64,000 nucleotides of DNA from contig CAIQJL010000264.1 of the NCBI GenBank assembly GCA_903872185.1, positions 64,038 to 128,037 of the forward strand, given 5' to 3'. Made by a program: the position numbers and the translations under genes. Below are positions 17,940 through 38,223 of this stretch, in pieces; position 1 is the first letter of the stretch; each line of letters starts with the position of its first letter. The notes beneath the pieces are model-generated. The model ran no database searches. It was given only the letters and a program-made list of their open reading frames with translations, and was not told the origin of the DNA. Origin of the DNA: an uncultured Bacteroidota bacterium (GTDB lineage Bacteria > Bacteroidota > Bacteroidia > Bacteroidales > GWA2-32-17).

Positions 17940-18515
17940 ATGAAAACAAAAAAAGTAATTGCTTTAATAGCTTTAGTAGGCTTTTTTACTTATGGATTTA
18001 TTACACATAATGATAACAAAGCAGTGAAATACGGCTATGAAAAAATTGGAAACCTAACAGTACAAATAGGTACTGCTATAGGAAATAAAGCACCAGAACT
18101 AAAATTTAAAAACCCTGAGGGAAAAGAAATTGCATTAAGTTCATTAAAAGGACAAATGGTATTAATTGATTTTTGGGCTTCATGGTGCGGTCCTTGTCGT
18201 CGCGAAAACCCTAGTGTTGTTGATGCTTACAACAAATATAAAGACAAAAAATACAAAAATGGAAAAGGCTTTACAATTTACAGTGTTTCTCTTGACAAAA
18301 GTGCAGAAAGTTGGAAAGCAGCTATTTTACAAGATGGTTTAGTTTGGACAACACATGTAAGCGACCTTTTATATTGGAGTTCTGAAGCCGCTAGGATATA
18401 CGGCGTTCAAGGCATTCCAACAAATTGGTTAATTGATGGCGACGGAATTATTGTTGCCTCAAACTTACGCGGAAACGCATTAGAACAAGCTTTAGAATCA
18501 CAGCTTAAAGAATAA
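17940..18515 (+). CDS. TlpA/ResA-like exported thiol:disulfide oxidoreductase
   Basis: 191 aa. N-terminal membrane anchor and FWASWCGPCRRENP thioredoxin-fold active site. Confidence 0.85.
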   Translation: MKTKKVIALIALVGFFTYGFITHNDNKAVKYGYEKIGNLTVQIGTAIGNKAPELKFKNPEGKEIALSSLKGQMVLIDFWASWCGPCRRENPSVVDAYNKYKDKKYKNGKGFTIYSVSLDKSAESWKAAILQDGLVWTTHVSDLLYWSSEAARIYGVQGIPTNWLIDGDGIIVASNLRGNALEQALESQLKE

Positions 18516-18519: not shown

Positions 18520-18945
18520 ATGTCTTACAAATACGAATATCCACGTGCATCTGTGTGCGTGGATATTATTGTTTTATACAAAAACGAAGATCAAACATTA
18601 ATCTTACTAATTGAAAGAAAACATCCTCCGTATAAAAATTGTTGGGCTCTACCTGGAGGATTTATTGAAATGGAAGAAACTCTTGAGAAATCCGCTATTA
18701 GGGAATTACAAGAGGAAACTGGCATATTATTAACCCATTTACAACAATTTTCAGCTTATGGTAATCCAGGTAGAGATCCAAGGGGAAGAACTATTTCTAT
18801 TGTTTTTTATACTACTATTGACAAACAAATTGCACTTACACCAAGTGATGATGCTTCAAATGCAAAATGGATTAACATTAAAGAATTACCCTCTCTGGCT
18901 TTTGATCATAAAATAATAATAGAAGATTTTATGACCAGACCATAA
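18520..18945 (+). CDS. NUDIX hydrolase
   Basis: 141 aa. Nudix box GGFIEMEETLEKSAIRELQEETG. Confidence 0.88.
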   Translation: MSYKYEYPRASVCVDIIVLYKNEDQTLILLIERKHPPYKNCWALPGGFIEMEETLEKSAIRELQEETGILLTHLQQFSAYGNPGRDPRGRTISIVFYTTIDKQIALTPSDDASNAKWINIKELPSLAFDHKIIIEDFMTRP

Positions 18946-19265
18946 AGATTTGCACAAATTAAAACACCTAATACGATAAAATTTTGTAGCTTGTTTTATT
19001 ATATAAAATTGATTTTTAATAAATTTCAAATCAATTTACAAATTCAAAAATTAACTTTTCTTGAAAATTTAAAAAGAAATAGTCATTAGCCAATATTGCT
19101 AATAATTAATATGATTGAAAAATATTTTAACAAAAACATGTTCTTTAATATTGATAAGAATCATAATTTTGTGTGTTTTACCTAGTTAGTTATATAGTAA
19201 TTTTGTAATAGACTATTTTCAATTGTCAAACAAGCTTTTTTTAATAACTAATTATACAAAATATT

Positions 19266-19808
19266 ATGAATATTAAAGTTTTAGGAGCTGGCTGCCATAA
19301 TTGCAGAGTATTTGAAACTGCAGTTCAAGAAACATTAACAGAAATGAAAATTGATGCAAAAGTAGAAGAAGTTGATAACATTACAGAAATAATGTCATAT
19401 GGAATTCTACGCACACCAGGTTTAGTTATTGATGGAAAAGTTGTTTTAAGTGGCAAAATTCCAACTAATAAAGAAATTAAAGACATTATTAAAAATTCTA
19501 TTAAAAACGAAGAACAAAAAGTAAAGTTCACAAGTAATCAAGAACAAATTGCAAGAATTGGGCTAGCTTTTTCACACCCTGCAAGAATTTTTATTTTAGA
19601 AACTTTAAATACTATGCATACCTGCTGTACAGATTGCCATAGTATTGGAGAAACACTTATAGATCCTGATACATTAGCAGAACATTTAAAGATTTTAAAA
19701 AGTGCAGGATTAATTCAAGGAGAAATTGTACCTCCAAAAATTAATTTCTGTATTAACAGAATAAATTTAGAAATCGCTAAAATTCTAATCACAAACTTTC
19801 TAAAATAG
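19266..19808 (+). CDS. fusion protein: thioredoxin-like 'redox-active disulfide protein 2' module (CHNC) plus ArsR/SmtB-type winged HTH module (CCTDC)
   Basis: 180 aa. Residues 1-77 align with ORF 21485..21724 (MNIKVLGAGCHNC / MEIKVLGTGCANC). Residues ~88-180 align with ORF 21728..22027 (FTSNQEQIARIGLAFSHPARIFI / FTAQQEQIARIAKALGHPARVYI; AGLIQGEIVPPKINFC / AGLIQGNIEPPQIKYC). Confidence 0.75.
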   Translation: MNIKVLGAGCHNCRVFETAVQETLTEMKIDAKVEEVDNITEIMSYGILRTPGLVIDGKVVLSGKIPTNKEIKDIIKNSIKNEEQKVKFTSNQEQIARIGLAFSHPARIFILETLNTMHTCCTDCHSIGETLIDPDTLAEHLKILKSAGLIQGEIVPPKINFCINRINLEIAKILITNFLK

Positions 19809-19830
19809 ATTTAATTAATATTATAAAAGT

Positions 19831-19867
19831 AAGTCTGGTTCCATTAAATTGGGGCCAGACTTTTTTT
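19831..19867 (+). terminator. rho-independent terminator after the Trx-ArsR fusion gene
   Basis: AAGTCTGGTTCC-ATTAAATT-GGGGCCAGACTT hairpin followed by TTTTTTT, 23 nt after the stop. Confidence 0.6.
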
Positions 19868-19960
19868 ATATTAAAAATATTTCGATTAAGTATAAACTAA
19901 TTAGATAAAGTATTGTATTTTTGGTATAAATAAATCTGCACACAACAAAGATAACTCAAT

Positions 19961-20689
19961 ATGGAAAACACAATAACAAGAATTGCTATCTTAGTTGATG
20001 GTGATAACGCACAGGCAAAACTTTTAAAACCAATTTTGGAAGAAGTTTCAAAATATGGAAAAGTAACAATTCGCAGAATATATGGCGACTGGACAAAACC
20101 ACAAATGGGAAGCTGGAAAGAATCATTGAATGACTTATCATTTACTCCTATTCAGAAGTTTTCATATACAACAGGAAAAAACTCTACAGACAGTTCATTA
20201 ATTATTGACGCAATGGATATTCTTCACGACAATATTGTAGAAGGATTTTGCATAGTTTCTAGCGATAGCGATTATACTGGATTAGCAAAAAGAATAAGAG
20301 AAGAAGGTGTATTTGTTATGGGTATTGGCGAAAAGAAAACCCCAAATGCATTCGTTCAATCATGCGAAATTTTTACTTACAGCGAAAATATTGTTCCCGT
20401 TGTTACAGAAGTTATTCTTAAAAAATCCAATCATAAGAAATCACAAAAACCCCAAACTCCACAAGTTGATATTAAACTCGTAAACAAAGCTTACGATATG
20501 TCGGTAAGTGAAGGATCCGAAACTCATATTTCACAGGTTGGACTAAATATAAGAAAAATAAATCCAAGCTTTGATCCCCGTGCCTTTGGATTTAAAACCC
20601 TTACTCAACTATTCGAAAGTCTTACCGATTACGAAGTAATTAGAAACAAAGTTGGAAGCTTAAATCATCCTATGGTTAAAAGGAAATAA
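19961..20689 (+). CDS. NYN (LabA/DUF88-like) domain protein with C-terminal OST-HTH/LOTUS-like domain
   Basis: 242 aa. IAILVDGDNAQ...IRRIYGDW...NSTDSSLIIDAMDIL...FCIVSSDSDYTGLAKRIRE is the NYN/PIN-like nuclease pattern. The C-terminal ~70 aa (ISQVGLNIRKINPSFDPRAFGFKTLTQLFES) look like OST-HTH. Confidence 0.75.
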   Translation: MENTITRIAILVDGDNAQAKLLKPILEEVSKYGKVTIRRIYGDWTKPQMGSWKESLNDLSFTPIQKFSYTTGKNSTDSSLIIDAMDILHDNIVEGFCIVSSDSDYTGLAKRIREEGVFVMGIGEKKTPNAFVQSCEIFTYSENIVPVVTEVILKKSNHKKSQKPQTPQVDIKLVNKAYDMSVSEGSETHISQVGLNIRKINPSFDPRAFGFKTLTQLFESLTDYEVIRNKVGSLNHPMVKRK

Positions 20690-20694
20690 ATTAT

Positions 20695-21372
20695 TTATTT
20701 CCAGTATTCATAATCCATATACTTTGCTGTAGCATCAGCAGCTTCTTTTCCAAAATATTTTGAAACAACAAACAGCGAACCGTCTATACCTGCCGAAACA
20801 CCTGCAGTAGTAACCACTTTTCCATTATCTGTATAACGAACACCTTTCATAACATTTGCAGTTGGAACCATTTTCTTTAAATTTTCTAATGCTCCATGCC
20901 ACGTTGTTACATTAAGGCTATCTAGTAATCCTGCATCAGCTAAAATAAACGCACCTGTACATACCGACATTAAGGTTTTTGATTCATTAGCAGTATTTAT
21001 TAACCAACTTTTAAATTCAGGTTGGTCTTTTAACAATCCTAAATCGCCACCAGGAACAATAAAAATATCTGGTTTAGGGCAACTATTAATATTGTAATCT
21101 GGAATTATTTTTAATCCACTGTGTGCTTTTATTTCTTCTTTTGCTGAAACGGTATATACATTAAATAAATGCTTACCATCTTTTGAATATGAATCATAAA
21201 ATACCTCTAATGGTCCAGTAAAATCTAATACATATACATCATTATAAACAAGAATAGCGACATTTAGAGTTTGCTGCTTTTCATCTTTAGCTTGTGCAAT
21301 ACTAAAGAATGGAATAATTAAGCATAAACTTAAAAACATCAATATTTGTTTTCCATCTTTTATAATTTTCAT
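20695..21372 (-). CDS. DJ-1/PfpI-family protein with N-terminal signal peptide
   Basis: 225 aa. Signal peptide (FFSIAQA), class-I glutamine-amidotransferase-like fold and nucleophile elbow MSVCTGAFILA. Confidence 0.85.
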   Translation of the reverse strand: MKIIKDGKQILMFLSLCLIIPFFSIAQAKDEKQQTLNVAILVYNDVYVLDFTGPLEVFYDSYSKDGKHLFNVYTVSAKEEIKAHSGLKIIPDYNINSCPKPDIFIVPGGDLGLLKDQPEFKSWLINTANESKTLMSVCTGAFILADAGLLDSLNVTTWHGALENLKKMVPTANVMKGVRYTDNGKVVTTAGVSAGIDGSLFVVSKYFGKEAADATAKYMDYEYWK

Positions 21373-21441
21373 GATTAAACTTTTGTAATAAATATTTGAT
21401 TAAAATTAATTTCAAAAATAAATAAAATCTTTTTGGAAATC

Positions 21442-21461
21442 ATTTCGTATATTTGCGAAAT
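21442..21461. promoter_or_regulatory. candidate ArsR-type operator: ATTTCG-N8-CGAAAT inverted repeat whose spacer TATATTTG matches the Bacteroidota -7 promoter element TAnnTTTG
   Basis: Read directly: cATTTCGtatatttgCGAAATat, 24 nt upstream of ATG 21485. It lies in the divergent region shared with the DJ-1 gene. Confidence 0.4.
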
Positions 21462-21484
21462 ATAAAAATGCAAAATTATCCATT

Positions 21485-21724
21485 ATGGAAATAAAAGTTT
21501 TAGGCACAGGTTGTGCAAATTGCAAAACCCTAGAAAAAGCTGTTAATACAGTATTAACAGAAATGAATTTAAATGCAACAGTAGTTAAGGAAGAAGACAT
21601 TCAGAAAATAATGTCATACGGAATAATGAAAACTCCAGGCTTAGTTATTGACGAAAAAGTTGTACTTAGTGGACGAGTACCAAATTCAAAAGAATTAAAA
21701 GAAATTATAGAGAAAAGTATTTGA
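21485..21724 (+). CDS. small thioredoxin-fold protein (redox-active disulfide protein 2 / Thioredoxin_3 type), CANC active site
   Basis: 79 aa. MEIKVLGTGCANCKTLEKAV...KTPGLVIDEKVV is typical of the family. Confidence 0.85.
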   Translation: MEIKVLGTGCANCKTLEKAVNTVLTEMNLNATVVKEEDIQKIMSYGIMKTPGLVIDEKVVLSGRVPNSKELKEIIEKSI

Positions 21725-21727
21725 TTA

Positions 21728-22027
21728 ATGACAACGAAACCAAAATTTACTGCACAACAAGAGCAAATAGCTCGTATTGCAAAAGCATTAGGACACCCGG
21801 CAAGAGTTTATATTATGGAAAAGCTTATTGGTTTAAATTCATGCTGCACAAGCGGCGAAATGATTGGCGATATTCCTATTGCACGGTCAACTCTTTCACA
21901 ACATTTAAAAGAGTTAAAATACGCAGGATTAATACAAGGAAATATAGAACCACCTCAGATTAAATACTGTGTAAATAAAGCTAATTGGGAAATTGCCAAA
22001 ATTCTATTAAAGAATTTTATGAAATAA
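21728..22027 (+). CDS. ArsR/SmtB-family metalloregulatory transcription factor
   Basis: 99 aa. LGHPARVYIMEKL (alpha1-2), a CC pair at the alpha3 position (NSCCTSGEMIG), HTH STLSQHLKELKYAGLI. Confidence 0.88.
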   Translation: MTTKPKFTAQQEQIARIAKALGHPARVYIMEKLIGLNSCCTSGEMIGDIPIARSTLSQHLKELKYAGLIQGNIEPPQIKYCVNKANWEIAKILLKNFMK

Positions 22028-22043
22028 TTTAATTATTTAGATG

Positions 22044-22063
22044 TTTCGTTATTATGCGAAATA
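22044..22063. promoter_or_regulatory. second copy of the candidate operator (GTTTCG-N8-CGAAAT)
   Basis: gatGTTTCGttattatgCGAAATaa, 26 nt upstream of ATG 22089. Same half-sites and same 8-nt spacer as at 21442. Confidence 0.4.
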
Positions 22064-22088
22064 AAAAACATTTTAAAATATATAGAAT

Positions 22089-22640
22089 ATGAAAATCATT
22101 AAAAAAATAAAATTTACTACCTTAGTAATAATTGTTTCCATTTGTATTACTTCTTGCAATTCTACCCCTAACAGTTTAGAAAGCAATTTACAATCTGATT
22201 CGATACCATCAATAATAGATACTTTAACAGCACCTATATCAATTACAGACAATACAAATATAGAAAACACAGAAAATACAACAGCATCAATAAAAAAAGA
22301 GGAAATACCTAAAATCCTTATTTATAACTTTCATGTAACAAATCGCTGTGCTTCTTGTATTGCAATAGAAAACGCAACAAAAAAAACACTCGACACTTAC
22401 TTTAAATCAGAACTTGATAAAGGAATAATAAAGTTCTCGATTTTATCAGTTGATGATGATGCTAATGCTAAAATTGCTGAAAAGTATCAGGCTTTTGGAT
22501 CAGCATTATTTGTAACAAGAGTTTTTAAAGGCAAAGAAACTACCTCTGATTTCACAGGCGATGGCTTTAAATATGCAAAAAATAAAGAAGAAAAGTTTAT
22601 AGAAATACTAAAAAATCAAATTACAGAATATTTAAAATAA
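22089..22640 (+). CDS. exported lipoprotein with thioredoxin-like RCxxC domain (resembles proteins I recall being labelled ArsF-family in Bacteroidota)
   Basis: 183 aa. Lipobox ITSC, a low-complexity linker, then ILIYNFHVTNRCASCIAIE...EKYQAFGSALF. Confidence 0.6.
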   Translation: MKIIKKIKFTTLVIIVSICITSCNSTPNSLESNLQSDSIPSIIDTLTAPISITDNTNIENTENTTASIKKEEIPKILIYNFHVTNRCASCIAIENATKKTLDTYFKSELDKGIIKFSILSVDDDANAKIAEKYQAFGSALFVTRVFKGKETTSDFTGDGFKYAKNKEEKFIEILKNQITEYLK

Positions 22641-22646
22641 CATATT

Positions 22647-23060
22647 ATGAAAAAAATATTATTCATATTGTTTTTAGCATTAACAAATTGTACATTATTT
22701 GCACAAACTCAAAATCTAAATAAGAAAACAAAACTATTAGTCTATTATTTTCACATTACCGATAGATGCAATACATGTAGAAGCATTGAAGCGGTTACGA
22801 CTAAAGTATTGAATGAAAATTACAAAAACGAACTTGATAGCGAAATAATAGTTTTTAAAACTTTCAATGTTGAATACCCAGAAAATAAATATATCTGTGA
22901 AAAATATCAGGCATATGGTGCCACATTAGCTCTTACTAAAATAGAATTTGGTGCAGAAGTAAAAATTGATGATTTAACCAATTTCGCTTTTTCAAAAATT
23001 CACACAGAAGAAATATTTACAAAAGGATTGATGGATAAAATAAATGAGTATTTAAAATAA
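22647..23060 (+). CDS. exported RCxxC thioredoxin-like protein, tandem paralog of 22089..22640
   Basis: 137 aa. Signal peptide, then LLVYYFHITDRCNTCRSIE...EKYQAYGATLAL, collinear with the upstream gene. Confidence 0.6.
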   Translation: MKKILFILFLALTNCTLFAQTQNLNKKTKLLVYYFHITDRCNTCRSIEAVTTKVLNENYKNELDSEIIVFKTFNVEYPENKYICEKYQAYGATLALTKIEFGAEVKIDDLTNFAFSKIHTEEIFTKGLMDKINEYLK

Positions 23061-23066
23061 CTCCTT

Positions 23067-23765
23067 ATGGAATTCATACAAAATCTAATTGACAATACTA
23101 ATATTCCTATTCTATCTGCTTTCCTTCTGGGAATTATGACTGCCATTAGTCCTTGTCCACTTGCAACTAACATTACTGCAATTGGTTTTATAAGCAAAGA
23201 CATTGAAAACAAAAAAAGAATTTTCTTTAATGGAATATGGTACACTTTAGGAAGGGCTTTTAGTTACACCACTATAGGTATAATTCTATATTTTGGGGCA
23301 AGTACTTTTAAGGTTGCAAAATTATTTCAATCAAACGGAGAAAAATTTTTAGGTCCATTACTTATAATTGTTGGAATACTAATGTTTGATTTTATTAAAA
23401 TTAAATTTCCAGGTTTTAGCAAACTTTCAGAGAAAATTGAAAACAAAAATAAAAATAACTGGTGGTCTGCCTTTCTGTTAGGTGTTGTTTTTGCTTTAGC
23501 TTTTTGTCCATATAGTGGGGTTTTATATTTTGGAATGTTAATTCCAATGACTGTTTCAAGTGTATCTGGATTATATTTGCCATTTGTTTTTGCATTAGCA
23601 ACAGGTTTGCCTGTAATAATAGTCGCTTATCTTTTAGCTTTTAGCATTTCAAGCATTGGTGGGTTTTACAGTAAGGTTAAAATTTTCGAAAAATGGTTCC
23701 GAAGAATAGTAGCTATAGCTTTTATTATAGTAGGGTTATATTACACTTACATTTTCTTTTTTTAA
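23067..23765 (+). CDS. CcdA/DsbD-type (DsbD_2) transmembrane thiol-disulfide electron carrier-like protein
   Basis: 232 aa, about six TM segments. The two hallmark membrane-embedded Cys-Pro motifs are present: AISPCPLATN (TM1) and ALAFCPYSG (TM4). Confidence 0.78.
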   Translation: MEFIQNLIDNTNIPILSAFLLGIMTAISPCPLATNITAIGFISKDIENKKRIFFNGIWYTLGRAFSYTTIGIILYFGASTFKVAKLFQSNGEKFLGPLLIIVGILMFDFIKIKFPGFSKLSEKIENKNKNNWWSAFLLGVVFALAFCPYSGVLYFGMLIPMTVSSVSGLYLPFVFALATGLPVIIVAYLLAFSISSIGGFYSKVKIFEKWFRRIVAIAFIIVGLYYTYIFFF

Positions 23766-23774
23766 ATTTAAAAA

Positions 23775-24809
23775 ATGAAAAACAGCTTTGTTCAAAGCGT
23801 AAAAGGTAAAATTATTTTACCCTTGTTATTATTACCTATTTGGTTTATAATTTACCATTTTTTACAACCATTTACAGAATGGTTTGTGTTCTCTGCATTG
23901 GGTATGGTTAAAGGCGAACATCTTGCAGAAAGTATCTGGTTTTTCATTTTTGAATTTCCAAAAGTATTGTTATTACTAACATTGATCATTTTCTTAGTAG
24001 GAATTATAAGAACTTTCTTCACTCCCGAACGCACTCGTAAAGCTCTTGAAGGCAAAAAAACTTTTACTGGCAATATTTTAGCTTCATTACTGGGTATTGT
24101 TACACCATTTTGCTCCTGTTCTGCAATTCCTCTATTTCTTGGCTTTGTTGAAACCGGTGTTCCATTAGGAGTAACATTTTCATTCCTTATTGCTGCCCCA
24201 ATGATTAATGAAGTTGCAGTTGTGCTTTTATATGGCATGTTTGGATGGAAAGTTGCATTAATTTATATTTCTACAGGTTTGTTTATAGCAATTTTTGCAG
24301 GCTGGGTAATAGGTAAACTTAAACTCGAAAAATGGATAGAACCCTGGGTCTTTGAAACAAAAATAGGACAAAATACCCTTGACGAGAAACTAATATTCAG
24401 TGATAGAATTAAATTTGGATACGATGCGATAAAAGAAATTGTTGGAAAAGTCTGGATATATGTTGCTATAGGAATTGCAGTAGGTGCAGGTGCGCATGGA
24501 TATGTGCCAGCCGAATTCATGGCTTCATTAATGGGAAAAGACATTTGGTACGCAGTTCCACTTTCTGTTTTGATTGGAATACCATTATATTCTAATGCTG
24601 CTGGTATAATTCCAATCGTTTCTGTACTTATCGAAAAAGGAGCTTCACTTGGAACTTCACTTGCATTTATGATGTCGGTTATTGCTTTATCATTGCCAGA
24701 AATGATTATCCTTAGAAAAGTACTAAAGCTTCCATTAATTTTTACTTTCATTGGTGTAGTTGGAGTTGGTATAATAATAGTTGGCTATTTGTTTAATTTT
24801 ATTTTTTAA
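23775..24809 (+). CDS. COG0701/UPF0718 (ArsP_1, DUF318) permease
   Basis: 344 aa polytopic protein with the family motif TPFCSCSAIPLF. Confidence 0.8.
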   Translation: MKNSFVQSVKGKIILPLLLLPIWFIIYHFLQPFTEWFVFSALGMVKGEHLAESIWFFIFEFPKVLLLLTLIIFLVGIIRTFFTPERTRKALEGKKTFTGNILASLLGIVTPFCSCSAIPLFLGFVETGVPLGVTFSFLIAAPMINEVAVVLLYGMFGWKVALIYISTGLFIAIFAGWVIGKLKLEKWIEPWVFETKIGQNTLDEKLIFSDRIKFGYDAIKEIVGKVWIYVAIGIAVGAGAHGYVPAEFMASLMGKDIWYAVPLSVLIGIPLYSNAAGIIPIVSVLIEKGASLGTSLAFMMSVIALSLPEMIILRKVLKLPLIFTFIGVVGVGIIIVGYLFNFIF

Positions 24810-24819
24810 ATAAATATTT

Positions 24820-25230
24820 ATGTTTAAAAACAAGGGATTTAAAATCGGTAACATTTTACATTTAACTCCAAAAGAAGCATATGAGCTTTGTAACCAGGAA
24901 TCAATTCTTGTTGATGTACGTGAAGATTTTATGGTTGGATGTAAAATTTTCGATGTAAAACAAACACTCTATTGTCCTGCAAGTAAAATTGAAGAATTAT
25001 ACAATAATTTACCAATAGAATCCTCTCTCGTTATTGCAGATGCAACTGGAATACATAGCAAAGAAGTAATTAATTTTCTGACCCAAAAAGGCTTTACAAA
25101 TATTGCAAATCTTGCAGGTGGCTTAGTTGAATGGGAACGCGACAACTTACCACTTCAAATTGACATCACCGAAATGCTAACAGGTTCTTGCATGTGTCAG
25201 TTAAAACAAAGGCACAAGAAAACAAATTAA
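24820..25230 (+). CDS. single-domain rhodanese-like protein, non-canonical active-site loop (Asp instead of Cys), C-terminal CMC tail
   Basis: 136 aa. ILVDVRE...LVIADATGIHSKEVINFLTQKGFTNIANLAGGLVEW aligns with the GlpE-type loop CYHGNSS, placing D where the catalytic C sits. The tail is TGSCMCQLKQRHKK. Confidence 0.78.
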   Translation: MFKNKGFKIGNILHLTPKEAYELCNQESILVDVREDFMVGCKIFDVKQTLYCPASKIEELYNNLPIESSLVIADATGIHSKEVINFLTQKGFTNIANLAGGLVEWERDNLPLQIDITEMLTGSCMCQLKQRHKKTN

Positions 25231-25241
25231 CAATTTTCATT

Positions 25242-25631
25242 ATGAAAGAGATTATTAACGCAAAAACTTTTAAGCTGGTTTATTTTAGTATTTTAGTTAT
25301 AGTATTTTTTTCATTTACTTTTTATTCCTGCAAAAAGGAAAAAGCAAATATAGAGCCTGATCCATCAGACAATTTAGCAATAGATAGCATTGTGGCAACA
25401 AAAACGAATATTATTACCTGGGAAGAAATATTTATAACAGCATATACAAGAGGAAATAATATTACCCTTAAATGGAGTGCAAATCATGGTAGTATGTTAG
25501 GTACCGATTCTTCCTCAGTTAAATATTGGGCTTGTCCATCTTGCACTGGCACTAACACTATCGAATGCAAAGCAAGTAATGAATATGGAACAATTTCAAA
25601 GACAATAACAATAAACGTAAGCCCTGAATGA
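25242..25631 (+). CDS. small lipoprotein, unknown function
   Basis: The track ORF starts at 25188, inside the rhodanese gene. The internal ATG at 25242 gives MKEIINAKTFKLVYFSILVIVFFSFTFYSC (lipobox). The mature part has two CxxC-spaced Cys (WACPSCTG) plus one more (ECK). Confidence 0.5.
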   Translation: MKEIINAKTFKLVYFSILVIVFFSFTFYSCKKEKANIEPDPSDNLAIDSIVATKTNIITWEEIFITAYTRGNNITLKWSANHGSMLGTDSSSVKYWACPSCTGTNTIECKASNEYGTISKTITINVSPE

Positions 25632-26593
25632 CAAATAAAATAACATTAATTACAATATTTATTTTTCTTTTTCAGGCAAACAGCTATTCTCAATGTTGTG
25701 CTGCAGGAAATCCTTCGGGTAGCGACATTTCACAAGAAGGACTGGGAAAGAACTTTTTTAAAATTAATCTACTTTATAAATACAGTTTATCAAAAGATTA
25801 TTTCCATTTTAATAAAAAATATTCGCTCCCCTACATTGAAAAAAGCAATTTCAATTACAGCAATGTTTCTATTGCTTATGGTTTATCTCAAAGGTTATCA
25901 TTAAATACAGAACTTGGTTATTTCATTAACAAATCACAAGAATTAAAAATAAATAATGAAAATATTTTAATAAATTCAAGTGGAATTGGAGATATATCAT
26001 TTAATGCAAGATATAAATTGATTCAAAAGGTTAAACCATTTTCTCAGCTATATATTTCGGCAGGAACAAAAATTCCGGTTGGAGCTTTTAATGAAGAAAT
26101 TGATGGAGTAACTATACCCATTTCGTTACAACCTTCATCTGGTGCATTAAAATTTAATGGTGGAATTTTTTATTTAAGAAAAAGTCTCGATAAAAAACTT
26201 GGCTGGTATAGCTTTGCTATTTTTGAATTTAGCAATACTATTAACAAAGGTTACCTGACCTATAAATATGGGAATTATTTACAATATACACTTGCAGGAA
26301 TTTATTCTTTTTCTAAAAAACTTTCAGCTATAGGGAATATTAAGGTTGAATATAGAGATCGTGATAAACGAGAAGAAAACTTAAAAATAGAATCAAGTGG
26401 CAGTAGAATATTATATTTTTCTCCACAATTTCAGTATAATTTTAAAAGATCATGGAATATTATTATAAATGCCGATATCCCAATTTATAAATATGTAAAC
26501 GGTTATCAGCTGACTAATAAATTTGCTTTTTCTTTTGGTATTTACAAAGCATTTAATTTGCAGAAAAGCAAAGAAAACTCAACTAATCCATAA
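25628..26593 (+). CDS. putative outer-membrane beta-barrel protein
   Basis: 321 aa. Signal peptide ending ...ANSYSQ, then CCAAGNP. Alternating-hydrophobic beta-strand pattern throughout, and aromatic-rich C-terminal strand FAFSFGIYKAF. The start overlaps the previous stop (ATGA). Confidence 0.55.
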   Translation: MTNKITLITIFIFLFQANSYSQCCAAGNPSGSDISQEGLGKNFFKINLLYKYSLSKDYFHFNKKYSLPYIEKSNFNYSNVSIAYGLSQRLSLNTELGYFINKSQELKINNENILINSSGIGDISFNARYKLIQKVKPFSQLYISAGTKIPVGAFNEEIDGVTIPISLQPSSGALKFNGGIFYLRKSLDKKLGWYSFAIFEFSNTINKGYLTYKYGNYLQYTLAGIYSFSKKLSAIGNIKVEYRDRDKREENLKIESSGSRILYFSPQFQYNFKRSWNIIINADIPIYKYVNGYQLTNKFAFSFGIYKAFNLQKSKENSTNP

Positions 26594-26628
26594 AATATAA
26601 TATTGCTTATTATTAATATATTCCAAAA

Positions 26629-26732
26629 TTCGTCATGGCGGCTCTGAGCCTAATATTGTTGCCTTAAGAGAAAATTATTTTGACATTTTATTCACCTACT
26701 TCTCGATATGCTTCGCTTCCGCCGCGGCGTAC
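26629..26732. repeat. bipartite GC-rich palindromic intergenic repeat, copy 1 (GTCATGGCGGC...~85 nt...CTTCGCTTCCGCCGCGGCG)
   Basis: A 100% GC 11-mer CCGCCGCGGCG and a GTCATGGCGG motif sit in otherwise AT-rich spacer. It mirrors copy 2 at 28938..29062. Confidence 0.45.
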
Positions 26733-26846
26733 AAATTAGCAATTATTTTTTGTAATACTAAATCTACAATGCTAGTTCGAGTTCAATCGAGAACTACTGG
26801 AATTACTCTCGCCATTGTATAAGTTTTATCCAATAATTTTTTATTA

Positions 26847-27011
26847 TTATTCTATAATTATTTTCCCTTTGCCAATTTCTTTACCAGAACTTAACACCTT
26901 ATACAAATAAATTCCACTTTCTAAATCATCACTTGAAAACTTAAATGTATTTGAATTTATATTATCTATATAGTTAATGTTCTTTAACAGAATATTCGTA
27001 TTTTTATTTCT
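26847..27011 (-). pseudogene. remnant of a T9SS type A C-terminal sorting domain (3' end of a decayed secreted-protein gene)
   Basis: Own translation of the minus strand: (R)NKNTNILLKNINYIDNINSNTFKFSSDDLESGIYLYKVLSSGKEIGKGKIIIE*. This is a typical Por_Secre_tail ending. The frame is closed by TGA immediately upstream and has no start codon. Confidence 0.6.
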
Positions 27012-27044
27012 TCATTTCAAAGATAAAAGTTAAATCAAAATTAG

Positions 27045-28121
27045 ATGAAAACCAAAGTATTATTTATATTAACAGTATTTATATTACTAAACTTTGCAGG
27101 GTACTCTCAAATAGTATTATCAGAAATCGACTTACCTGTTGCTGGCGATATTCAAATAAGTTCAAAAATTGATAGTATTGAAGGAATAAATATTTTACCA
27201 GGAGATTCGGGAGCAAACAAAACATGGTTTTTTGATTCGTATAATTTATGGGGAGGTACATTAGAATCATCAGCCGATTCGGTTAGATGGGTAACTGCAG
27301 ATTCATTATTAGTATTTCCATTAGCAAATATTGCATTAAAATCAAATTGTTATTTATGGCACGATATGGTTTCTCACACTTTAAAAGAAAAATGTTTCAG
27401 AGATTATTACATAAAAGATTCAACAGGATTAAACTATTATGCTTCAAGCTATCCCAATGCCAATTACCTTCCAGATTACCGCAATATTTTTCCAGTAATT
27501 CAATATGGACAATCAAAGATTGATCATTCAAGAATTGTAATTCATAAAACTATCGACTCAGTTTATGTAACTAATGTTATAGATTCAACAAAAGCAGATG
27601 CCTGGGGAGAAGTAATAACCTTAATAGGCAATTACAATACAATAAGATTTCATACAAAAGAAACTGTATGGGATAGTTTATATATAAACGGTGTTGGGCA
27701 ACAATTAAACTACATGCCTAATAATTACTATTACAAATGGTATACTAACGATCTCGGTTTTCCTGTAATGCAAATTAATAAAGGTATTTTAGAAAAACAA
27801 TATAATTATCAGATTGTAAAATTTGCAGTAAATAAAAGAAATGAAATTGGAATAAAAGAAATTATAAATTCAGGTACAAACATTAAAATATTACCGAATC
27901 CTTTTAATAACGAAGCAACAATAATTCTCAATAATCAGCTTTTTGAAAATAATTTAACAATGAATATTTATGATATCACAGGCAGAGATATTAAAGAAAT
28001 AAAAAACATCTCGAACGAGAATAATATAATTAATAGAAATAAAATCCCGGCAGGCATGTATACATTTAAAATCACTAACAATAAAGAGTTTATTGGAACC
28101 GGAAAATTTATTGTTCTATAA
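27045..28121 (+). CDS. secreted protein of unknown function with T9SS type A C-terminal sorting domain
   Basis: 358 aa. Signal peptide. C-terminus IKILPNPFNNEATIIL...MNIYDITGRDI...IPAGMYTFKITNN...GKFIVL. Confidence 0.75.
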   Translation: MKTKVLFILTVFILLNFAGYSQIVLSEIDLPVAGDIQISSKIDSIEGINILPGDSGANKTWFFDSYNLWGGTLESSADSVRWVTADSLLVFPLANIALKSNCYLWHDMVSHTLKEKCFRDYYIKDSTGLNYYASSYPNANYLPDYRNIFPVIQYGQSKIDHSRIVIHKTIDSVYVTNVIDSTKADAWGEVITLIGNYNTIRFHTKETVWDSLYINGVGQQLNYMPNNYYYKWYTNDLGFPVMQINKGILEKQYNYQIVKFAVNKRNEIGIKEIINSGTNIKILPNPFNNEATIILNNQLFENNLTMNIYDITGRDIKEIKNISNENNIINRNKIPAGMYTFKITNNKEFIGTGKFIVL

Positions 28122-32437: not shown

Positions 32438-34858
32438 TTATTTTATTGATTTATTTTTCAAAGCCTTATTAGCTTGTAAAGATGAAATAAGAGTAACAAA
32501 TCCAACAACAGTAATAGAACTTAGAGGCATTAATATAGCTGCAACTATAGGAGATAACAACCCCATAACTGCATAATATAAACCCACAGAATTATAAGCA
32601 AATGAAAAAGCAAAACTGGCTTGAATTATCTTTCTGGTAGTTTTACTAAACGAAATAAAAATGGCTAAATCATCAAATGATTCTGCTTTTAAAATGGCAT
32701 CACAAGCAGGAGAAAAATGGTAAATATCATCAGCAATTGAAATTCCGATATTACTCTGCATCAATGCTCCCGCATCATTTAACCCATCACCTATCATTAA
32801 AACCTTTTTACCACTTTGTTGTAAAGATTTAATATAGTTCAGCTTATCATCAGGACTTTTATTAAAGTGCAAATTATTATCAAAATATTTTTTAAGTAAA
32901 TCATTGTCCTTAATAGTATCACCTGAAATTAAATGTAATTCGTACCCTTTATTTTTAAGTATTGTTAAAACATTTTCAAGACTATTTCGCAATTTAGTAT
33001 TTAAAATAAATTTACCGTAATAGGCTCCATCAATTGAAACATGAACATTAGTTTCAAATTCATTTACATTAATTTCATTAACCGTTACAAAAACAGCTGA
33101 ACCAATTTTAAATAGCTTTCCATTTACTTTCCCTTCAATTCCCTTACCTGTAATTTCGCTAAACTCACTTGCATCTTCAAAATTTTCAAAGGAATAATTC
33201 TGTGTTAAATATTTAAAAACCGACTGACTTAATGGGTGTGTTGAATGACGAGCCAAAGAAGCTATTTCAAGCATTTCGAGATTAGAAAGCGTAATTTCAG
33301 ATTTAAAAACAATATCGTGCACATCTGATTGTGTAATTGTTCCGGTCTTATCAAAAACAATAGTCTCAATATCATATAATCTTTCTAAAACTTCATTGTT
33401 TTTTAAATATAGTCCTTTGTTTCCAAATACTCTCATTACATTACTGTATGTGAATGGCAATGAAAGAGCAAGTGCACATGGACAAGCTACAATTAAAACT
33501 GAAGTAAAAGCTTTAATAATCATTGAACTATCAACGAAAAACCAAACTACTGCTGTAACAAATCCAATAATTAATACAACAAGAGTAAATCTTTTACTTA
33601 TTACATCAATCAACTTAGTTAATGAACTATTTCCTCTACTTGAGTTTATACCTTGCTCCTGGTTCCATAATTGCGTTAATCTGCTTTGCTGAGTTGAAGT
33701 TTTAACAAGCAGTTCAATTGTACTGCCAATTTGTTTGCCACCAGCATAAACAAATTCACCTTTTACTTTGTTAACAGGAACAGACTCACCTGTCACAAAA
33801 CTATAATCAATATTAGCATAAGGACTAATTAATATTGAATCGGCAGGAATTAGCTCTTGGTTTCTTATTCTAATAATATCACCTTCTGCCAAATCGTGTA
33901 ATTGAACTGAAATCTCTTTCCCTTCATTGAGTTTTGTTACAGCAACTGGAAAATATGAACGATAATTTCTGTTAAAAGATAATGCCTGATATGTTTTAGC
34001 CTGATACCACTTTCCCACTAAAAGAAAAAACACAAGTCCACAAAGTGAATCCATGTATCCTGAGCCAATTTTTGTTAGTATTTCATATGCACTCTCGGCA
34101 AAAATTGCAATTAATCCAATTGCTATGGGAAAATCAATATTTAAAATTCCTTTACGAATATTTTTCCAGGCAGAAATAATATAATCACTCCCACTATAAA
34201 AAAATACAGGAATAGCTAACAATAAATTTAATATTCCAAAAAATGATTTATAAGAAAAATCTATTGTTTCTGAACCTGGAATATACTCAGGAAAACTAAA
34301 CAACATTGTATTTCCAAAAGCAAACCCAGCTATTCCTATTTTATATAGAAGTTGTTTATTTCCCTTTTGATTTTTTCTTTTCTCAACACTTTCAAGTGTA
34401 ATGTTAGGAATATAATGTATTGAAACCAATAATTCAACTACTTGTCTTAAACTAATTTCATCTGAGTTAAATGTTATAGTAACTTCCTTCTTTACAAAAT
34501 GAACTAGTGAATGCGTAATGCCAGCATTAAGTTTCGATAAATTCTCTAACAACCAAATACATGAGCTACAATGTATTCCCGGAATAAATAAAGTTACTTT
34601 CTTTAGATTTTTTTCCGAAAACTCATATAATTTTTCTTGTACCTCCTCTAAATCAAGATAAGAGAATTTATTATGGTAATTATCAGAAGTTAGTTTTATT
34701 CCAGGATGCGATTCAAAATTATAGTAATCGTAAAGCTTATGTTTATTTAAAATTTGATAAACAGTTTTACAACCATCGCAACAAAAATTCTTTTCATTCC
34801 ATATTATAGGATGCTTTCCGCAACTGTCACCACAATGTATGCAACTTACTTTTTCCAT
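32438..34858 (-). CDS. ccoI: heavy-metal (copper) P1B-type ATPase, CcoI/FixI-type
   Basis: 806 aa. N-terminal Cys-rich CIHCGDSC...CCDGC, HMA-like GIHCSSC, CPC motif (VACPCAL), DKTGT, GDGLND. It sits at the distal end of the cco cluster. Confidence 0.85.
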   Translation of the reverse strand: MEKVSCIHCGDSCGKHPIIWNEKNFCCDGCKTVYQILNKHKLYDYYNFESHPGIKLTSDNYHNKFSYLDLEEVQEKLYEFSEKNLKKVTLFIPGIHCSSCIWLLENLSKLNAGITHSLVHFVKKEVTITFNSDEISLRQVVELLVSIHYIPNITLESVEKRKNQKGNKQLLYKIGIAGFAFGNTMLFSFPEYIPGSETIDFSYKSFFGILNLLLAIPVFFYSGSDYIISAWKNIRKGILNIDFPIAIGLIAIFAESAYEILTKIGSGYMDSLCGLVFFLLVGKWYQAKTYQALSFNRNYRSYFPVAVTKLNEGKEISVQLHDLAEGDIIRIRNQELIPADSILISPYANIDYSFVTGESVPVNKVKGEFVYAGGKQIGSTIELLVKTSTQQSRLTQLWNQEQGINSSRGNSSLTKLIDVISKRFTLVVLIIGFVTAVVWFFVDSSMIIKAFTSVLIVACPCALALSLPFTYSNVMRVFGNKGLYLKNNEVLERLYDIETIVFDKTGTITQSDVHDIVFKSEITLSNLEMLEIASLARHSTHPLSQSVFKYLTQNYSFENFEDASEFSEITGKGIEGKVNGKLFKIGSAVFVTVNEINVNEFETNVHVSIDGAYYGKFILNTKLRNSLENVLTILKNKGYELHLISGDTIKDNDLLKKYFDNNLHFNKSPDDKLNYIKSLQQSGKKVLMIGDGLNDAGALMQSNIGISIADDIYHFSPACDAILKAESFDDLAIFISFSKTTRKIIQASFAFSFAYNSVGLYYAVMGLLSPIVAAILMPLSSITVVGFVTLISSLQANKALKNKSIK

Positions 34859-34868
34859 CTAACATCAG

Positions 34869-35588
34869 TTAGTGACAGCATGAATGTTTTGCATTACATG
34901 TTTCAGTGTAAGGTGTTAATACCTTATCAACAGGACTAATATATTTTATTCCTAAATTTAGCCCTCTTAGAATAAAAAGTAATCCTATTAAAATAACAAC
35001 AAACGGAATTAATTTTGTAAACACTCTTCTTATTGCAATTCCCAATGAATTTCCAATAATAGAAATTGCAATTAACATTGGACTAGTTGCTAGTCCAAAA
35101 GCAATCATTGCTATCATTCCTGTAATGCTATCATTTGAAGTTATTGCAAGTGCTACTGCCGTATAAACTAAACCACAAGGCAAAAGCCCATTTAATAAGC
35201 CTATTGAGAACAAAGACAGATATGAACTTATTGCAAACTTTTTACTCAAACTATTCTGAATTTTTGAAATAATCGAGAAACTTTTAGCCTTAAATCTATT
35301 TCTAAAAAATAATGGAAAAAGAACAGTTAATATCATTATAACACCAGTAACAACAGACACTATCTGCTGAAATCCAGCCATCTGAAAACCTTTACCAATT
35401 AATCCAAAAAGCAACCCTAACAATGCATAAGTAATTGTTCTTCCAAAATTATAAAAAAGAGTACTTAATACACTTGATAACCAATTACTGTTTTTTAATG
35501 GCAGTGCTAAGGCAATTGGACCACACATTCCTGCACAATGAAAACTGCCAAGAAAACCAAGTGTTAAAGCAGAAATAATTATTACCAT
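34869..35588 (-). CDS. membrane protein with HCxxMCGP motif (DsbD_2/TauE-like), cco-cluster associated
   Basis: 239 aa, about six TM segments. GSFHCAGMCGPIA at the N-terminus and a Cys-rich C-terminus CNAKHSCCH. Confidence 0.6.
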   Translation of the reverse strand: MVIIISALTLGFLGSFHCAGMCGPIALALPLKNSNWLSSVLSTLFYNFGRTITYALLGLLFGLIGKGFQMAGFQQIVSVVTGVIMILTVLFPLFFRNRFKAKSFSIISKIQNSLSKKFAISSYLSLFSIGLLNGLLPCGLVYTAVALAITSNDSITGMIAMIAFGLATSPMLIAISIIGNSLGIAIRRVFTKLIPFVVILIGLLFILRGLNLGIKYISPVDKVLTPYTETCNAKHSCCH

Positions 35589-36037
35589 TATAAATTAATA
35601 TTAAATTCCTGATAATAACTAATAGTATCAGATGTCCAATCTATTTTAATCTGATATCGCTTTTCAGAAAAATTTGAAATACTGAATTTTTGAATATTGT
35701 TAGTATCAGGTTCAATTTTAAATAATAAATCTTTATTTGTTTTTGAAGGACAATAAAATTGCACATTTCCTTTTATAGTATGAGATTTAAATGCTTTAGG
35801 AAATGTAATTATTACGAAATCTTTAGATTGAAATAAAGTTATTTTTTCAAGTAGTTGATTTGTGTTTTTTTGTTTTTGAATTTCCTTTTCGTAATTAAGT
35901 TCTTTATGATAATAATCTTTTGTGATTACGTCATCTTCAATGCCTAAACTTAAGATTATTCTTAAAATTATAGTTCCAAAAAATAGCATTAAAACTATAA
36001 AAATTCCCCACCCCCAATTAAATTTAGTTTTAACCAT
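35588..36037 (-). CDS. FixH-like protein
   Basis: 149 aa, a single N-terminal TM segment plus a soluble domain. It sits between ccoG and the TauE-like gene, and its stop overlaps the next start by 1 nt. Confidence 0.6.
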   Translation of the reverse strand: MVKTKFNWGWGIFIVLMLFFGTIILRIILSLGIEDDVITKDYYHKELNYEKEIQKQKNTNQLLEKITLFQSKDFVIITFPKAFKSHTIKGNVQFYCPSKTNKDLLFKIEPDTNNIQKFSISNFSEKRYQIKIDWTSDTISYYQEFNINL

Positions 36038-36048
36038 TTAACAAGTTG

Positions 36049-37425: not shown

Positions 37426-37456
37426 TATAATAATTTAATAAAGGCTTTAGAACAAT

Positions 37457-38029: not shown

Positions 38030-38046
38030 AAAACTAATATTTAGAT

Positions 38047-38223
38047 TTATTCAATATTTTCTTTATCTAATGGCAAATTACTCATCTCATTTGTGTAACT
38101 TTTGTTTAACATAAAAACCCATGCAACAATTCCAATAAAAGTTATAACTGACATCACTGTTGCTATAATTGGAAGCAAATATGAAGATGGATCTAAATCA
38201 AGAAACTGATATATTATTTTCAT
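38047..38223 (-). CDS. CcoQ/FixQ-like small membrane protein (58 aa; below the ORF-track cutoff)
   Basis: Own translation: MKIIYQFLDLDPSSYLLPIIATVMSVITFIGIVAWVFMLNKSYTNEMSNLPLDKENIE*. One TM helix. The ATG overlaps the ccoNO stop (ATGA). It sits between ccoNO and ccoP. Confidence 0.55.
   Translation of the reverse strand: MKIIYQFLDLDPSSYLLPIIATVMSVITFIGIVAWVFMLNKSYTNEMSNLPLDKENIE

Follow-up and report, generated by a model that had tools for sequence, protein, structure and literature searches.

A probable ArsR-controlled arsenical-detoxification cluster of the ArsEFG and ArsP type, with three accessory genes including a lipoprotein-barrel pair, in an uncultured Bacteroidota bacterium

The window analysed here is a 64-kb stretch (64,000 nucleotides, nt) of contig CAIQJL010000264.1 from an uncultured Bacteroidota bacterium, within which all coordinates are numbered, and the subject of this study is a cluster of nine plus-strand open reading frames (ORFs) that the ORF listing places at 21485-26593. 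In order, these encode the small thioredoxin-like protein ArsE, the regulator ArsR, two paralogues of ArsF (ArsF1 and ArsF2), the membrane protein ArsG, a permease of the ArsP_1 (COG0701) family, a rhodanese-homology protein, a lipoprotein and an outer-membrane barrel. The intergenic gaps, recomputed with the lipoprotein gene taken to start at the ATG at 25242, are 3, 61, 6, 6, 9, 10 and 11 nt, followed by a 4-nt ATGA overlap between the last two genes. An initial annotation, made from the letters of the sequence, had described nine same-strand genes with this spacing and with characteristic cysteine motifs, and all of them were present; profile searches also returned the families it had named, with matches to Thioredoxin_3, HTH_5, DsbD_2, ArsP_1 and Rhodanese and, for the barrel, to Phenol_MetA_deg.

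The first gene, arsE (21485-21724, 79 amino acids, aa), encodes a protein that matched Thioredoxin_3 at an E value of 1e-28 and TIGR00412, the MTH895/ArsE family, with 110 bits against a cut-off of 62, and that is related to MTH895 in the Protein Data Bank (PDB; 1ILO, E 2e-13). Sequence analysis revealed neither a signal peptide nor a transmembrane segment, which places ArsE in the cytoplasm, and its CxxC motif (GCANC), comprising the only two cysteines of the protein, is kept in 77 of 77 homologues. The product of arsR (21728-22027, 99 aa) matched HTH_5 with 30 bits (cut-off 22) and NF033788 with 43 bits, the latter under its cut-off of 55. Its Cys39-Cys40 pair (NSCCTS) lies within the helix-turn-helix region and is accompanied by Cys81; among 99 ArsR-type matches, a set that includes a second ArsR type, C40 is conserved in 90, C81 in 95 and C39 in 69.

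Both ArsF proteins are exported. ArsF1 (22089-22640, 183 aa) is a lipoprotein (lipobox ITSC) in which a low-complexity tether of approximately 55 residues leads to a C-terminal ArsF domain bearing the motif RCASC; residues 77-180 matched NF040494 with 99.6 bits against a cut-off of 60, and the CxxC is present in 49 of 49 homologues. ArsF2 (22647-23060, 137 aa), which is 38% identical to ArsF1, reached 92.1 bits with the same model (cut-off 60) and carries a signal peptide and the motif RCNTC, the CxxC being found in 61-62 of 62 homologues. The ArsF profile matched thioredoxins and protein disulfide isomerase at a marginal E value of about 1e-3, with its CxxC aligned on their WCxxC, and we accordingly describe ArsF as apparently thioredoxin-like at the active site. 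Membership of ArsF in the Thioredoxin_3 relatives is not claimed, since an hhalign comparison with ArsE covered just 20 columns around the CxxC with 41% probability.

ArsG (23067-23765, 232 aa) matched the equivalog model NF040495 with 318 bits against a cut-off of 200, over profile positions 2-224 of 225, together with DsbD_2 (88 bits), DsbD_TM (52 bits) and a DsbD transmembrane-domain model (1e-10). It is a CcdA/DsbD-type protein with six transmembrane segments and exactly two cysteines, C30 (SPCP) and C147 (FCPY), each of which lies within a hydrophobic segment according to hydropathy analysis. The early description of a CcdA/DsbD-type protein with both Cys-Pro motifs was borne out, as both cysteines are kept in 87 of 87 homologues and the protein is flanked by an MTH895-type thioredoxin and exported CxxC proteins. 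The permease (23775-24809, 344 aa) matched ArsP_1 (PF03773) with 247 bits and fell under the cut-offs of characterised ArsP_1 subfamilies (SaoE, 129 versus 325; SO_0444, 99 versus 300), and no ArsP-specific model was among its NCBIfam matches. It too has exactly two cysteines, C113 and C115 (FCSCS), which are situated in a hydrophobic segment, and the CxC is retained in 49 of 49 homologues. PDB sequence searches with ArsF2, ArsG and the permease returned no relatives.

Because ArsE, both ArsF proteins and ArsG pass NCBIfam cut-offs, and ArsR and the permease pass those of Pfam, the first six genes bear established ars names (arsE, arsR, two copies of arsF and arsG, plus a gene for an ArsP_1 permease) and constitute a recognised ars module; we are highly confident of the identity of the cluster parts. 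The same five-gene core is annotated in RefSeq by the Prokaryotic Genome Annotation Pipeline (PGAP) on pFA1 of Fulvitalea axinellae (ArsR, thioredoxin, ArsF, ArsG and permease, with no other ars gene nearby) and in a mobile element of Prevotella nigrescens (winged helix-turn-helix protein, ArsF, ArsG, thioredoxin, permease, ArsC and ACR3). The initial annotation had presented the nine genes as an uncharacterised system lacking any canonical ars core. The second part of that statement is literally correct for arsB and arsC, yet the cluster is a recognised ars module; the first applies to the last three genes, which are uncharacterised, but not to the first six, which form a named set annotated in RefSeq.

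The seventh gene (24820-25230, 136 aa) encodes a protein without a signal peptide, and hence cytoplasmic, that matched Rhodanese (PF00581) with 30 bits against a cut-off of 22. Its predicted rhodanese-like nature held for the fold but not for the catalytic residue: in a PDB alignment Asp74 is aligned with the catalytic cysteine of 6MXV, and this aspartate is present in 120 of 121 homologues. No sulfurtransferase activity is possible with aspartate in place of the catalytic cysteine, and a sulfurtransferase or persulfide role was therefore rejected; the suggestion that the cluster handles reactive sulfur species is weakened by the same replacement. The only obvious reactive feature of the protein is its invariant C-terminal CxC tail (GSCMCQLK), which follows the motif G-S-C-x-C-Q-L-[KR] in 120 of 121 homologues, with C124 and C126 kept in the same proportion. 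Inactive rhodanese homology domains, in which the active-site cysteine is replaced, commonly by aspartate, are a familiar class and are said to have been treated by Bordo and Bork in 2002. The present protein resembles them in its rhodanese fold and in the aspartate at the catalytic position, and differs in being a stand-alone polypeptide of 136 aa with the invariant cysteine tail, encoded directly after an ArsP_1 permease.

The last two genes specify a pair of envelope proteins. The lipoprotein (25242-25631, 129 aa; lipobox FYSC) gave no Pfam or NCBIfam match, and none of the 51 clusters of its homologues is named or belongs to a Pfam family. In addition to the lipobox Cys30, C98-x2-C101 and C109 are invariant in 41 sequences, and a divergent subgroup has C-C in place of C-x-x-C with the three cysteines retained. 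An AlphaFold2 model (mean predicted local distance difference test, pLDDT, 88.6) returned only immunoglobulin (Ig)-like domains in Foldseek, indicating a beta-sandwich, and a role as a thioredoxin-type oxidoreductase was rejected on the grounds of this Ig-like fold. In every locus examined that has the pair, the lipoprotein gene lies immediately upstream of the barrel gene.

The barrel protein (25628-26593, 321 aa) matched Phenol_MetA_deg (PF13557) with 26.4 bits against a cut-off of 22, and its AlphaFold2 model is a 12-stranded barrel (pLDDT 85.6, predicted template-modelling score 0.81) whose best Foldseek match was 4RL8, the COG4313 channel Pput2725 (E 9e-14, template-modelling score 0.84), with FapF next. 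The predicted mature N-terminus is Gln22-Cys23-Cys24-A-A-G-N-P (SQ-CCAAGNP in the precursor), and Cys23 and Cys24 are the sole cysteines of the protein; across the family Q22 and C23 never vary, C24 is kept in at least 90% of sequences and the motif Cys24-x-Ala-Gly-Asn-Pro is nearly invariant. This motif opens a segment of about 20 residues ahead of strand 1, where the pLDDT is below 50 at residues 13-24 and averages 53 and 68 in the two 10-residue blocks covering residues 21-40. When 1.84 billion representatives were searched with a profile, 352 barrel relatives were obtained at E<=1e-30. The N-terminal Cys-Cys was found in 125 of the 144 new family representatives inspected, and 13 of these 144 carry a C-terminal HMA-like CxxC domain (GxCxMCKxRIE...CC[KH]YR), a fusion that points to the handling of a thiophilic metal or metalloid. 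A scan of metagenome contigs with the barrel protein gave two contigs of about 1.5 kb, without gene context.

As a separate observation on these extended proteins, the C-terminal extension measures about 90 aa and combines the HMA-like GxCxMCKxRIE motif with a terminal CC[KH]YR motif; members carrying it are P0096, P0097, P0281, P0286, P0291, P0293, P0294 and P0298, as well as P0300, P0301, P0311, P0313-P0315 and P0334. P0096 is located in a non-arsenic context, beside a 216-aa Ig-like protein (locus L091).

COG4313 proteins are 12-stranded barrels whose lumen is occluded by an N-terminal segment and which have been implicated in the passage of hydrophobic or aromatic molecules (PMC4493636). 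Like the COG4313 channels Pput2725 (4RL8), TcpY and SphA (PMC4493636) and like FapF, the barrel of the window is predicted to have 12 strands and an N-terminal segment before the first of them. Unlike the COG4313 channels, it belongs to a subfamily from Bacteroidia in which the mature protein invariably starts with Gln-Cys-Cys. Members of this subfamily are always paired with an Ig-like lipoprotein bearing three conserved cysteines, some are fused to an HMA-like domain, and their genes occur in arsenic islands, not in aromatic-catabolic operons. Literature searches joining COG4313 or Phenol_MetA_deg to arsenic returned nothing relevant, and for the accessory trio, above all the outer-membrane pair, there is neither a family name nor any other name, and the trio is absent from the literature searched.

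The palindrome TTTCG-N8-CGAAA occurs exactly twice in the 64-kb window, compared with 0.06 occurrences expected. The first copy, TTTCGtatatttgCGAAA (21443-21460, plus strand), ends 24 nt before the arsE ATG, and the second, TTTCGttattatgCGAAA (22044-22061, plus strand), lies in the 61-nt gap, the only long one of the cluster, and ends 27 nt ahead of the arsF1 start codon. Among 90 related loci (L001-L090, 1.37 Mb in total) there were 62 matches to the palindrome, of which 32 lay no more than 150 nt ahead of an ArsE or ArsR gene. From this distribution we infer that the palindromes are candidate ArsR operators, marking two putative ArsR-controlled promoters. The gaps of 6-11 nt and the lack of any plus-strand terminator-like site found within the cluster favour co-transcription of arsF1 through the barrel gene, and no intrinsic terminator was found 3' of the latter. 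A sigma-70 promoter scan detected 45 sites against 47.6 expected and, as it does not cover Bacteroidota promoters, is uninformative.

Approximately 2 kb upstream of arsE and arsR lies a further gene (19266-19808, plus strand, 180 aa) whose product fuses the two proteins, with a Thioredoxin_3 domain at residues 1-76 (CHNC) and an ArsR-type helix-turn-helix domain at residues 96-153 (TCCTDC), and which shares 59% identity with the stand-alone ArsE and 56% with the stand-alone ArsR. The gene is followed by a strong terminator-like hairpin (19831-19862), has an equally placed counterpart in the close relative L090, and probably belongs to the same regulon as the cluster. Its domain architecture suggests that ArsE might act directly on the thiols of ArsR, as well as or instead of on ArsG.

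To place the cluster in a wider context, loci were collected around ArsG from one genome per species, giving 80 loci at 62-84% ArsG identity, nearly all of them in metagenome-assembled genomes or isolates of Bacteroidia; lake and sediment Bacteroidia are the origin of most homologues, and Carboxylicivirga, Marinilabilia and Roseimarinus are cultured relatives that carry the block. The gene order described in the initial annotation is not peculiar to this genome and recurs in these 80 loci. In essentially all of them ArsE or ArsR is followed by one to three ArsF and then by ArsG, and among the 61 informative loci, defined by at least 4 kb of downstream sequence, the ArsP_1 permease comes directly after ArsG in 39. 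Co-occurrence of the seven genes from arsF1 onward is general for ArsF and ArsG but not for the accessory genes, with the rhodanese homologue found in 19 of the 61, the lipoprotein in 8 and the barrel in 7. In 33 of the 61 loci, one or more canonical ars genes (ArsC, Acr3, ArsM or ArsD) are situated within 10 kb (ArsC in 29, Acr3 in 26 and ArsM in 16). The closest relative found, L090, has a lipoprotein 81% identical to that of the window and shares the same nine genes and flanks. The nine-gene arrangement is not due to chance, because the order recurs in the ArsG-anchored loci and the conserved cysteine pairs are invariant or nearly so among homologues. Alignments of homologues revealed an invariant cysteine pair or triad in every protein of the chain proposed below, and in ArsE, ArsG, the permease and the barrel this pair represents the sole cysteines of the protein.

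Eleven contexts anchored on the barrel were sampled independently, at 37-56% identity. In eight of these (L081, L082, L083, L086, L087, L095, L096 and L097), an ArsC of the low-molecular-weight protein tyrosine phosphatase type and/or Acr3, often together with ArsM, is encoded in the same co-directional array. In L008, L022, L083, L086, L089, L095 and L097, the gene immediately preceding that of the lipoprotein encodes an exported thioredoxin-fold protein, namely ArsF, an AhpC/TSA-like protein or, in several loci, a fusion of ArsE, a transmembrane segment and a thioredoxin domain. The fullest islands begin with arsE-arsR-arsF(n)-arsG-arsP, continue with DUF169, DGC or rhodanese homologues, a thioredoxin fusion, the lipoprotein and the barrel, and extend beyond the barrel to a second arsR, a Cys-rich exported protein, FtsX/MacB-type ABC genes and arsC-arsM-acr3; the window carries only the front half of this arrangement. 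The same block thus adjoins arsC, arsM and acr3 in other Bacteroidia.

Several features of the larger islands are recorded here in their own right. The fusions of ArsE, a transmembrane segment and a thioredoxin domain (L008 6515-7267, L022 4526-5284, L095 938-1759 and L097 8757-9521) are located immediately 5' of the lipoprotein-barrel pair; these polypeptides of about 250-270 aa have an N-terminal ArsE-like Thioredoxin_3 domain, a transmembrane segment and a C-terminal thioredoxin/AhpC-like CxxC domain, and look like a one-protein redox link across the membrane. A second module, comprising an ArsR with a C-terminal CNC, an exported Cys-rich thioredoxin-like protein ending GC..GxCGS..C, a MacB_PCD/FtsX permease and an ABC ATPase, was observed at L021 12228-15283, L022 7843-10900, L086 12190-16487, L095 3196-6242, L096 9945-14144 and L097 11039-15065. 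This module often adjoins the lipoprotein-barrel pair, with whose barrel it may form a MacB-type envelope pump, and is absent from the window. In larger islands (L081 8567-9643, L097 20119-20957 and L082 8105-9181), the interval from ArsP to the pair repeatedly holds genes for MauE/DoxX-like, DUF169 and DGC (Cys-rich, zinc-ribbon-like) proteins, none of which was found in the window.

The genes flanking the cluster are housekeeping or unrelated, with UvrD, DUF4290, an EPSP_synthase-family protein, an AhpC/TSA-like protein, NUDIX, NYN and DJ-1 upstream, and a type IX secretion system (T9SS) cargo protein, DUF4197 and a TonB receptor downstream. As the initial annotation had stated, ArsB, Acr3, ArsC, ArsA, ArsD and ArsM are missing from the 64-kb window: Pfam scans of all other ORFs of at least 110 aa, except a 1611-aa ORF at 7669-12504, found none, and tblastn searches of the window with ArsC, Acr3, ArsM and ArsD from related loci gave no match. 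An Rfam search of 18900-27200 gave no match either. Horizontal acquisition of the cluster was considered, and its GC content of 0.27-0.32 is the same as in the rest of the window. Directly upstream of arsE, and divergent from it, lies a gene for a DJ-1/PfpI protein with a signal peptide (20695-21372, minus strand), and the distant locus L083 has a DJ-1/PfpI gene (4049-4705) about 3.5 kb upstream of its ArsR gene; this proximity could be coincidence or a loose association. An exported AhpC/TSA/Redoxin-like protein is encoded 3 kb upstream of the cluster (17940-18515, plus strand), and in L089 a protein of this kind is encoded directly upstream of the lipoprotein-barrel pair. The 450-nt non-coding stretch 3' of the barrel gene contains a start-less reading frame on the minus strand (approximately 26853-26990, ending ...SDDLESGIYLYKVLSSGKEIGKGKIIIE*), which resembles a degraded T9SS C-terminal sorting domain, and unusually GC-rich patches are present 3' of the barrel gene at 26636-26650 and 26700-26735. 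Farther downstream, a cbb3-type oxidase cluster (32438-40385, minus strand) comprises fused COX1/FixO, FixP, a FixG-like ferredoxin, FixH, a DsbD_2 protein (34869-35588) and a P-type ATPase; with its own DsbD_2 gene, this cluster implies that the organism has a separate housekeeping CcdA-like protein and is not a strict anaerobe.

Taken together, these data lead us to interpret the cluster, with a probability of roughly 0.65, as a putative ArsR-controlled operon for the detoxification of an arsenical, most likely an organoarsenical, of the ArsE-ArsF-ArsG plus ArsP type and extended by three accessory genes. This type is widespread in the arsenic islands of Bacteroidia, and the copy in the window is a compact one with no arsC or acr3 nearby. 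The link to arsenic, which we hold to be likely, follows from the physical joining of 33 of the 61 informative ArsG loci and 8 of the 11 barrel contexts to ars genes. The parts list of the initial annotation, its layout from the cytoplasm to the outer membrane and its guess of an organoarsenical substrate all hold up.

Homology supplies the components of the mechanism that we propose, and we infer each of its biochemical steps. ArsR would bind both TTTCG-N8-CGAAA palindromes, ahead of arsE-arsR and of arsF1 through the barrel gene, and would be released when a trivalent arsenical is ligated by Cys39, Cys40 and Cys81. The CxxC of cytoplasmic ArsE may then pass reducing equivalents to the two membrane-embedded cysteines of the CcdA-like ArsG, which in turn would reduce the exported, thioredoxin-like ArsF1 and ArsF2 and so provide a dedicated periplasmic source of reductant. 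We give this relay about an even chance, favouring it because a triad of cytoplasmic thioredoxin, CcdA-like membrane protein and exported thioredoxin-like protein is the signature of a transmembrane reductant relay. The permease would export a thiol-reactive trivalent arsenical over the inner membrane by way of its intramembrane CxC, and the rhodanese-homology protein, with its C-terminal CxC, could be a cytoplasmic hand-over or docking factor. At the outer membrane, the Ig-like lipoprotein with its three cysteines and the COG4313-type barrel, whose N-terminal segment would occlude the lumen and start with pyroglutamate-Cys-Cys, might offer a passage or a binding station, the thiols of both being kept reduced by the ArsF proteins. 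That the pair is an outer-membrane gate for arsenicals is a tentative proposal, with the odds somewhat against it. Rather unlikely, in our judgement, is the fuller version, in which the pair is a dedicated, thiol-lined gate for arsenicals or other thiophilic metalloids, ArsE, ArsG and ArsF are no nitroreductase and efflux pump but keep its cysteines reduced, and these proteins together with ArsP and the CxC rhodanese homologue as a chaperone would make up a cysteine relay for trivalent arsenicals from the cytoplasm to the exterior.

A number of observations weigh against this interpretation. With no canonical arsenic gene in the window, the connection to arsenic depends on homology and on what is found in other genomes; the permease is placed only at family level, and other members of ArsP_1 are annotated as Cu/Zn or other efflux transporters; the similarity of ArsF to thioredoxins is marginal, both in its E value and in the short hhalign overlap with ArsE; and the N-terminal segment of the barrel model is of low confidence. 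The lipoprotein-barrel pair is linked to only about 13% of ArsG loci and also occurs in the non-arsenic contexts L088, where it adjoins a NikR/TonB/ABC cluster and a DsbD_2 gene, and L089 and L091, where its neighbours are housekeeping genes. In L090 the barrel is represented by two called ORFs, 105 and 189 aa long (10381-11342), which could reflect a frameshift, a pseudogene or an assembly error, and the outer-membrane component may be dispensable or decaying in that lineage. Finally, the published labels of ArsEFG differ from ours, with ArsE/F as a nitroreductase and ArsG as an efflux permease instead of an electron conduit.

These labels constitute the main rival to our interpretation; they fit poorly here, yet they rest on experiments. 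The ArsEFG system of Shewanella putrefaciens 200 was reportedly described by Chen, Zhang and Rosen in 2019 (said to be in Environ Sci Technol 53:6182), with ArsE/F reported to be a nitroreductase for nitro-aromatic arsenicals and ArsG an efflux permease. Applied to the window, this mechanism would have ArsE and ArsF reduce the nitro group of trivalent roxarsone or nitarsone to an amine, ArsG extrude the resulting aromatic amino-arsenical and ArsP other trivalent organoarsenicals, leaving the last three genes peripheral. In keeping with such a mechanism, the DsbD family belongs to the LysE transporter superfamily, which also holds true solute carriers. Likewise, NCBIfam cut-offs are passed for ArsE, for 'nitrophenyl compound nitroreductase subunit ArsF' and for 'aromatic aminobenzylarsenical efflux permease ArsG', and PMC9144182, with reference to Chen et al. 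2019, counts ArsG as an efflux transporter and ArsE/F as determinants of resistance to organoarsenicals. The cluster also resembles that of Shewanella in that the three families exceed curated cut-offs and their genes are adjacent, co-oriented and under an ArsR-family regulator; it differs in having two ArsF paralogues, one of them a tethered lipoprotein, in the position of arsR between arsE and arsF, and in the ArsP_1, Cys-less rhodanese, lipoprotein and barrel genes that follow, with no arsC or acr3 nearby. It is, however, hard to see how an exported ArsF and a non-exported ArsE could make up a two-subunit enzyme of the cytoplasm, no flavin or metal-cofactor domain was identified in ArsE, ArsF or ArsG by Pfam and NCBIfam profiles, and the Bacteroidia of lakes and sediments are unlikely to be under selection from synthetic nitro-aromatic arsenicals. 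Moreover, the invariant intramembrane cysteines of ArsG, set between thioredoxin-like partners, argue for electron transfer as opposed to solute transport, and the sequence features in the window point to a thioredoxin-CcdA-thioredoxin relay and not to the nitroreductase and permease of the published scheme. CcdA and DsbD proteins are transmembrane thiol-disulfide electron transporters with thioredoxin donors and periplasmic thioredoxin-like acceptors, such as ResA, CcmG and the substrates of ScsB (PMC3322552). ArsG is like them in its DsbD_TM and DsbD_2 matches, in its two invariant cysteines with proline neighbours in separate transmembrane segments, and in the adjoining genes for a cytoplasmic thioredoxin-like protein and exported CxxC proteins; it is unlike them in being under putative ArsR control and embedded in arsenic islands, in having acceptors of a family of their own (ArsF) that is marginally thioredoxin-like, and in its dedicated 79-aa MTH895-type donor, which takes the place of a general thioredoxin. 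We consider it unlikely, on balance, that the published mechanism accounts for the cluster.

Less probable still is a role for the window copy outside arsenic, in which the cluster would serve envelope thiol protection or act on soft metals (Cu, Hg, Cd, Zn, Sb or Te) or reactive sulfur, under an ArsR/SmtB sensor of another specificity, and would have been recruited into arsenic islands elsewhere. The lack of arsC, acr3 and arsM in the window would agree with this, as would the core of Fulvitalea pFA1 with its lack of other ars genes, the HMA-like domains fused to 13 of 144 barrel relatives, the pairs beside the NikR/TonB/ABC cluster and housekeeping genes, and the fact that ArsR/SmtB and ArsP_1 include Cu/Zn-, sulfite- and persulfide-related members (weak NCBIfam matches to CmtR, BigR, SaoE and SO_0444 were obtained). 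Against it, ArsG is well past its equivalog cut-off, a physical link to arsC, acr3 or arsM, in many cases within a single co-directional array, is seen in more than half of the informative ArsG loci and in 8 of the 11 barrel contexts, determinants for Cu, Hg or Cd show no comparable recurrence, and the rhodanese homologue is without the cysteine needed for persulfide chemistry. ArsP itself is an efflux permease for methylarsenite and trivalent roxarsone in Campylobacter jejuni, and two distinct arsP clades, which may differ in function, have been distinguished (PMC6205960). The permease of the window can be likened to C. jejuni ArsP at family level only, in its ArsP_1 match, its conserved intramembrane cysteine pair and its linkage to ars genes. 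Unlike canonical ars operons (arsRBC, arsRDABC or arsR-arsC-acr3), the cluster contains no ArsB or Acr3 pump and no ArsC, whereas the homologous block adjoins ArsC or Acr3 in many other Bacteroidia. Hardly any weight can be given to a housekeeping CcdA/ResA-like pathway for cytochrome c maturation or periplasmic disulfide reduction, next to which the permease and outer-membrane genes would lie by coincidence. The DsbD_TM match of ArsG is compatible with such a pathway and the organism does make c-type cytochromes, having a cbb3 oxidase cluster at 36049-40385, but a separate DsbD_2 gene is located within the cbb3 maturation cluster, the present genes include ArsR and a conserved operator-like palindrome, their order and their linkage to ArsP and ars genes are conserved over 62-84% ArsG identity, and the short gaps argue for a single transcript.

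The core six genes of the cluster are already known and annotated, and it is the accessory trio, above all the outer-membrane pair, that is uncharacterised. Arsenic resistance in Gram-negative bacteria has, to our knowledge, been described almost wholly for the inner membrane and the cytoplasm, and we know of no dedicated outer-membrane component, nor was one found in the literature searched. A conserved pair with invariant cysteine motifs that sits in arsenic islands, often behind a gene for a periplasmic thioredoxin-fold protein, is a concrete candidate for such a component, and if the cysteine-relay reading is true, arsenic resistance would gain its first outer-membrane component and ArsEFG would have to be re-interpreted. 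An exported ArsF, a cytoplasmic ArsE and a CcdA-like ArsG cast doubt on the propagated labels 'nitroreductase subunit' and 'efflux permease'. As Bacteroidia are major organisms of gut and sediment and meet methylated and aromatic arsenicals there, the pathway bears on arsenic speciation in these habitats.

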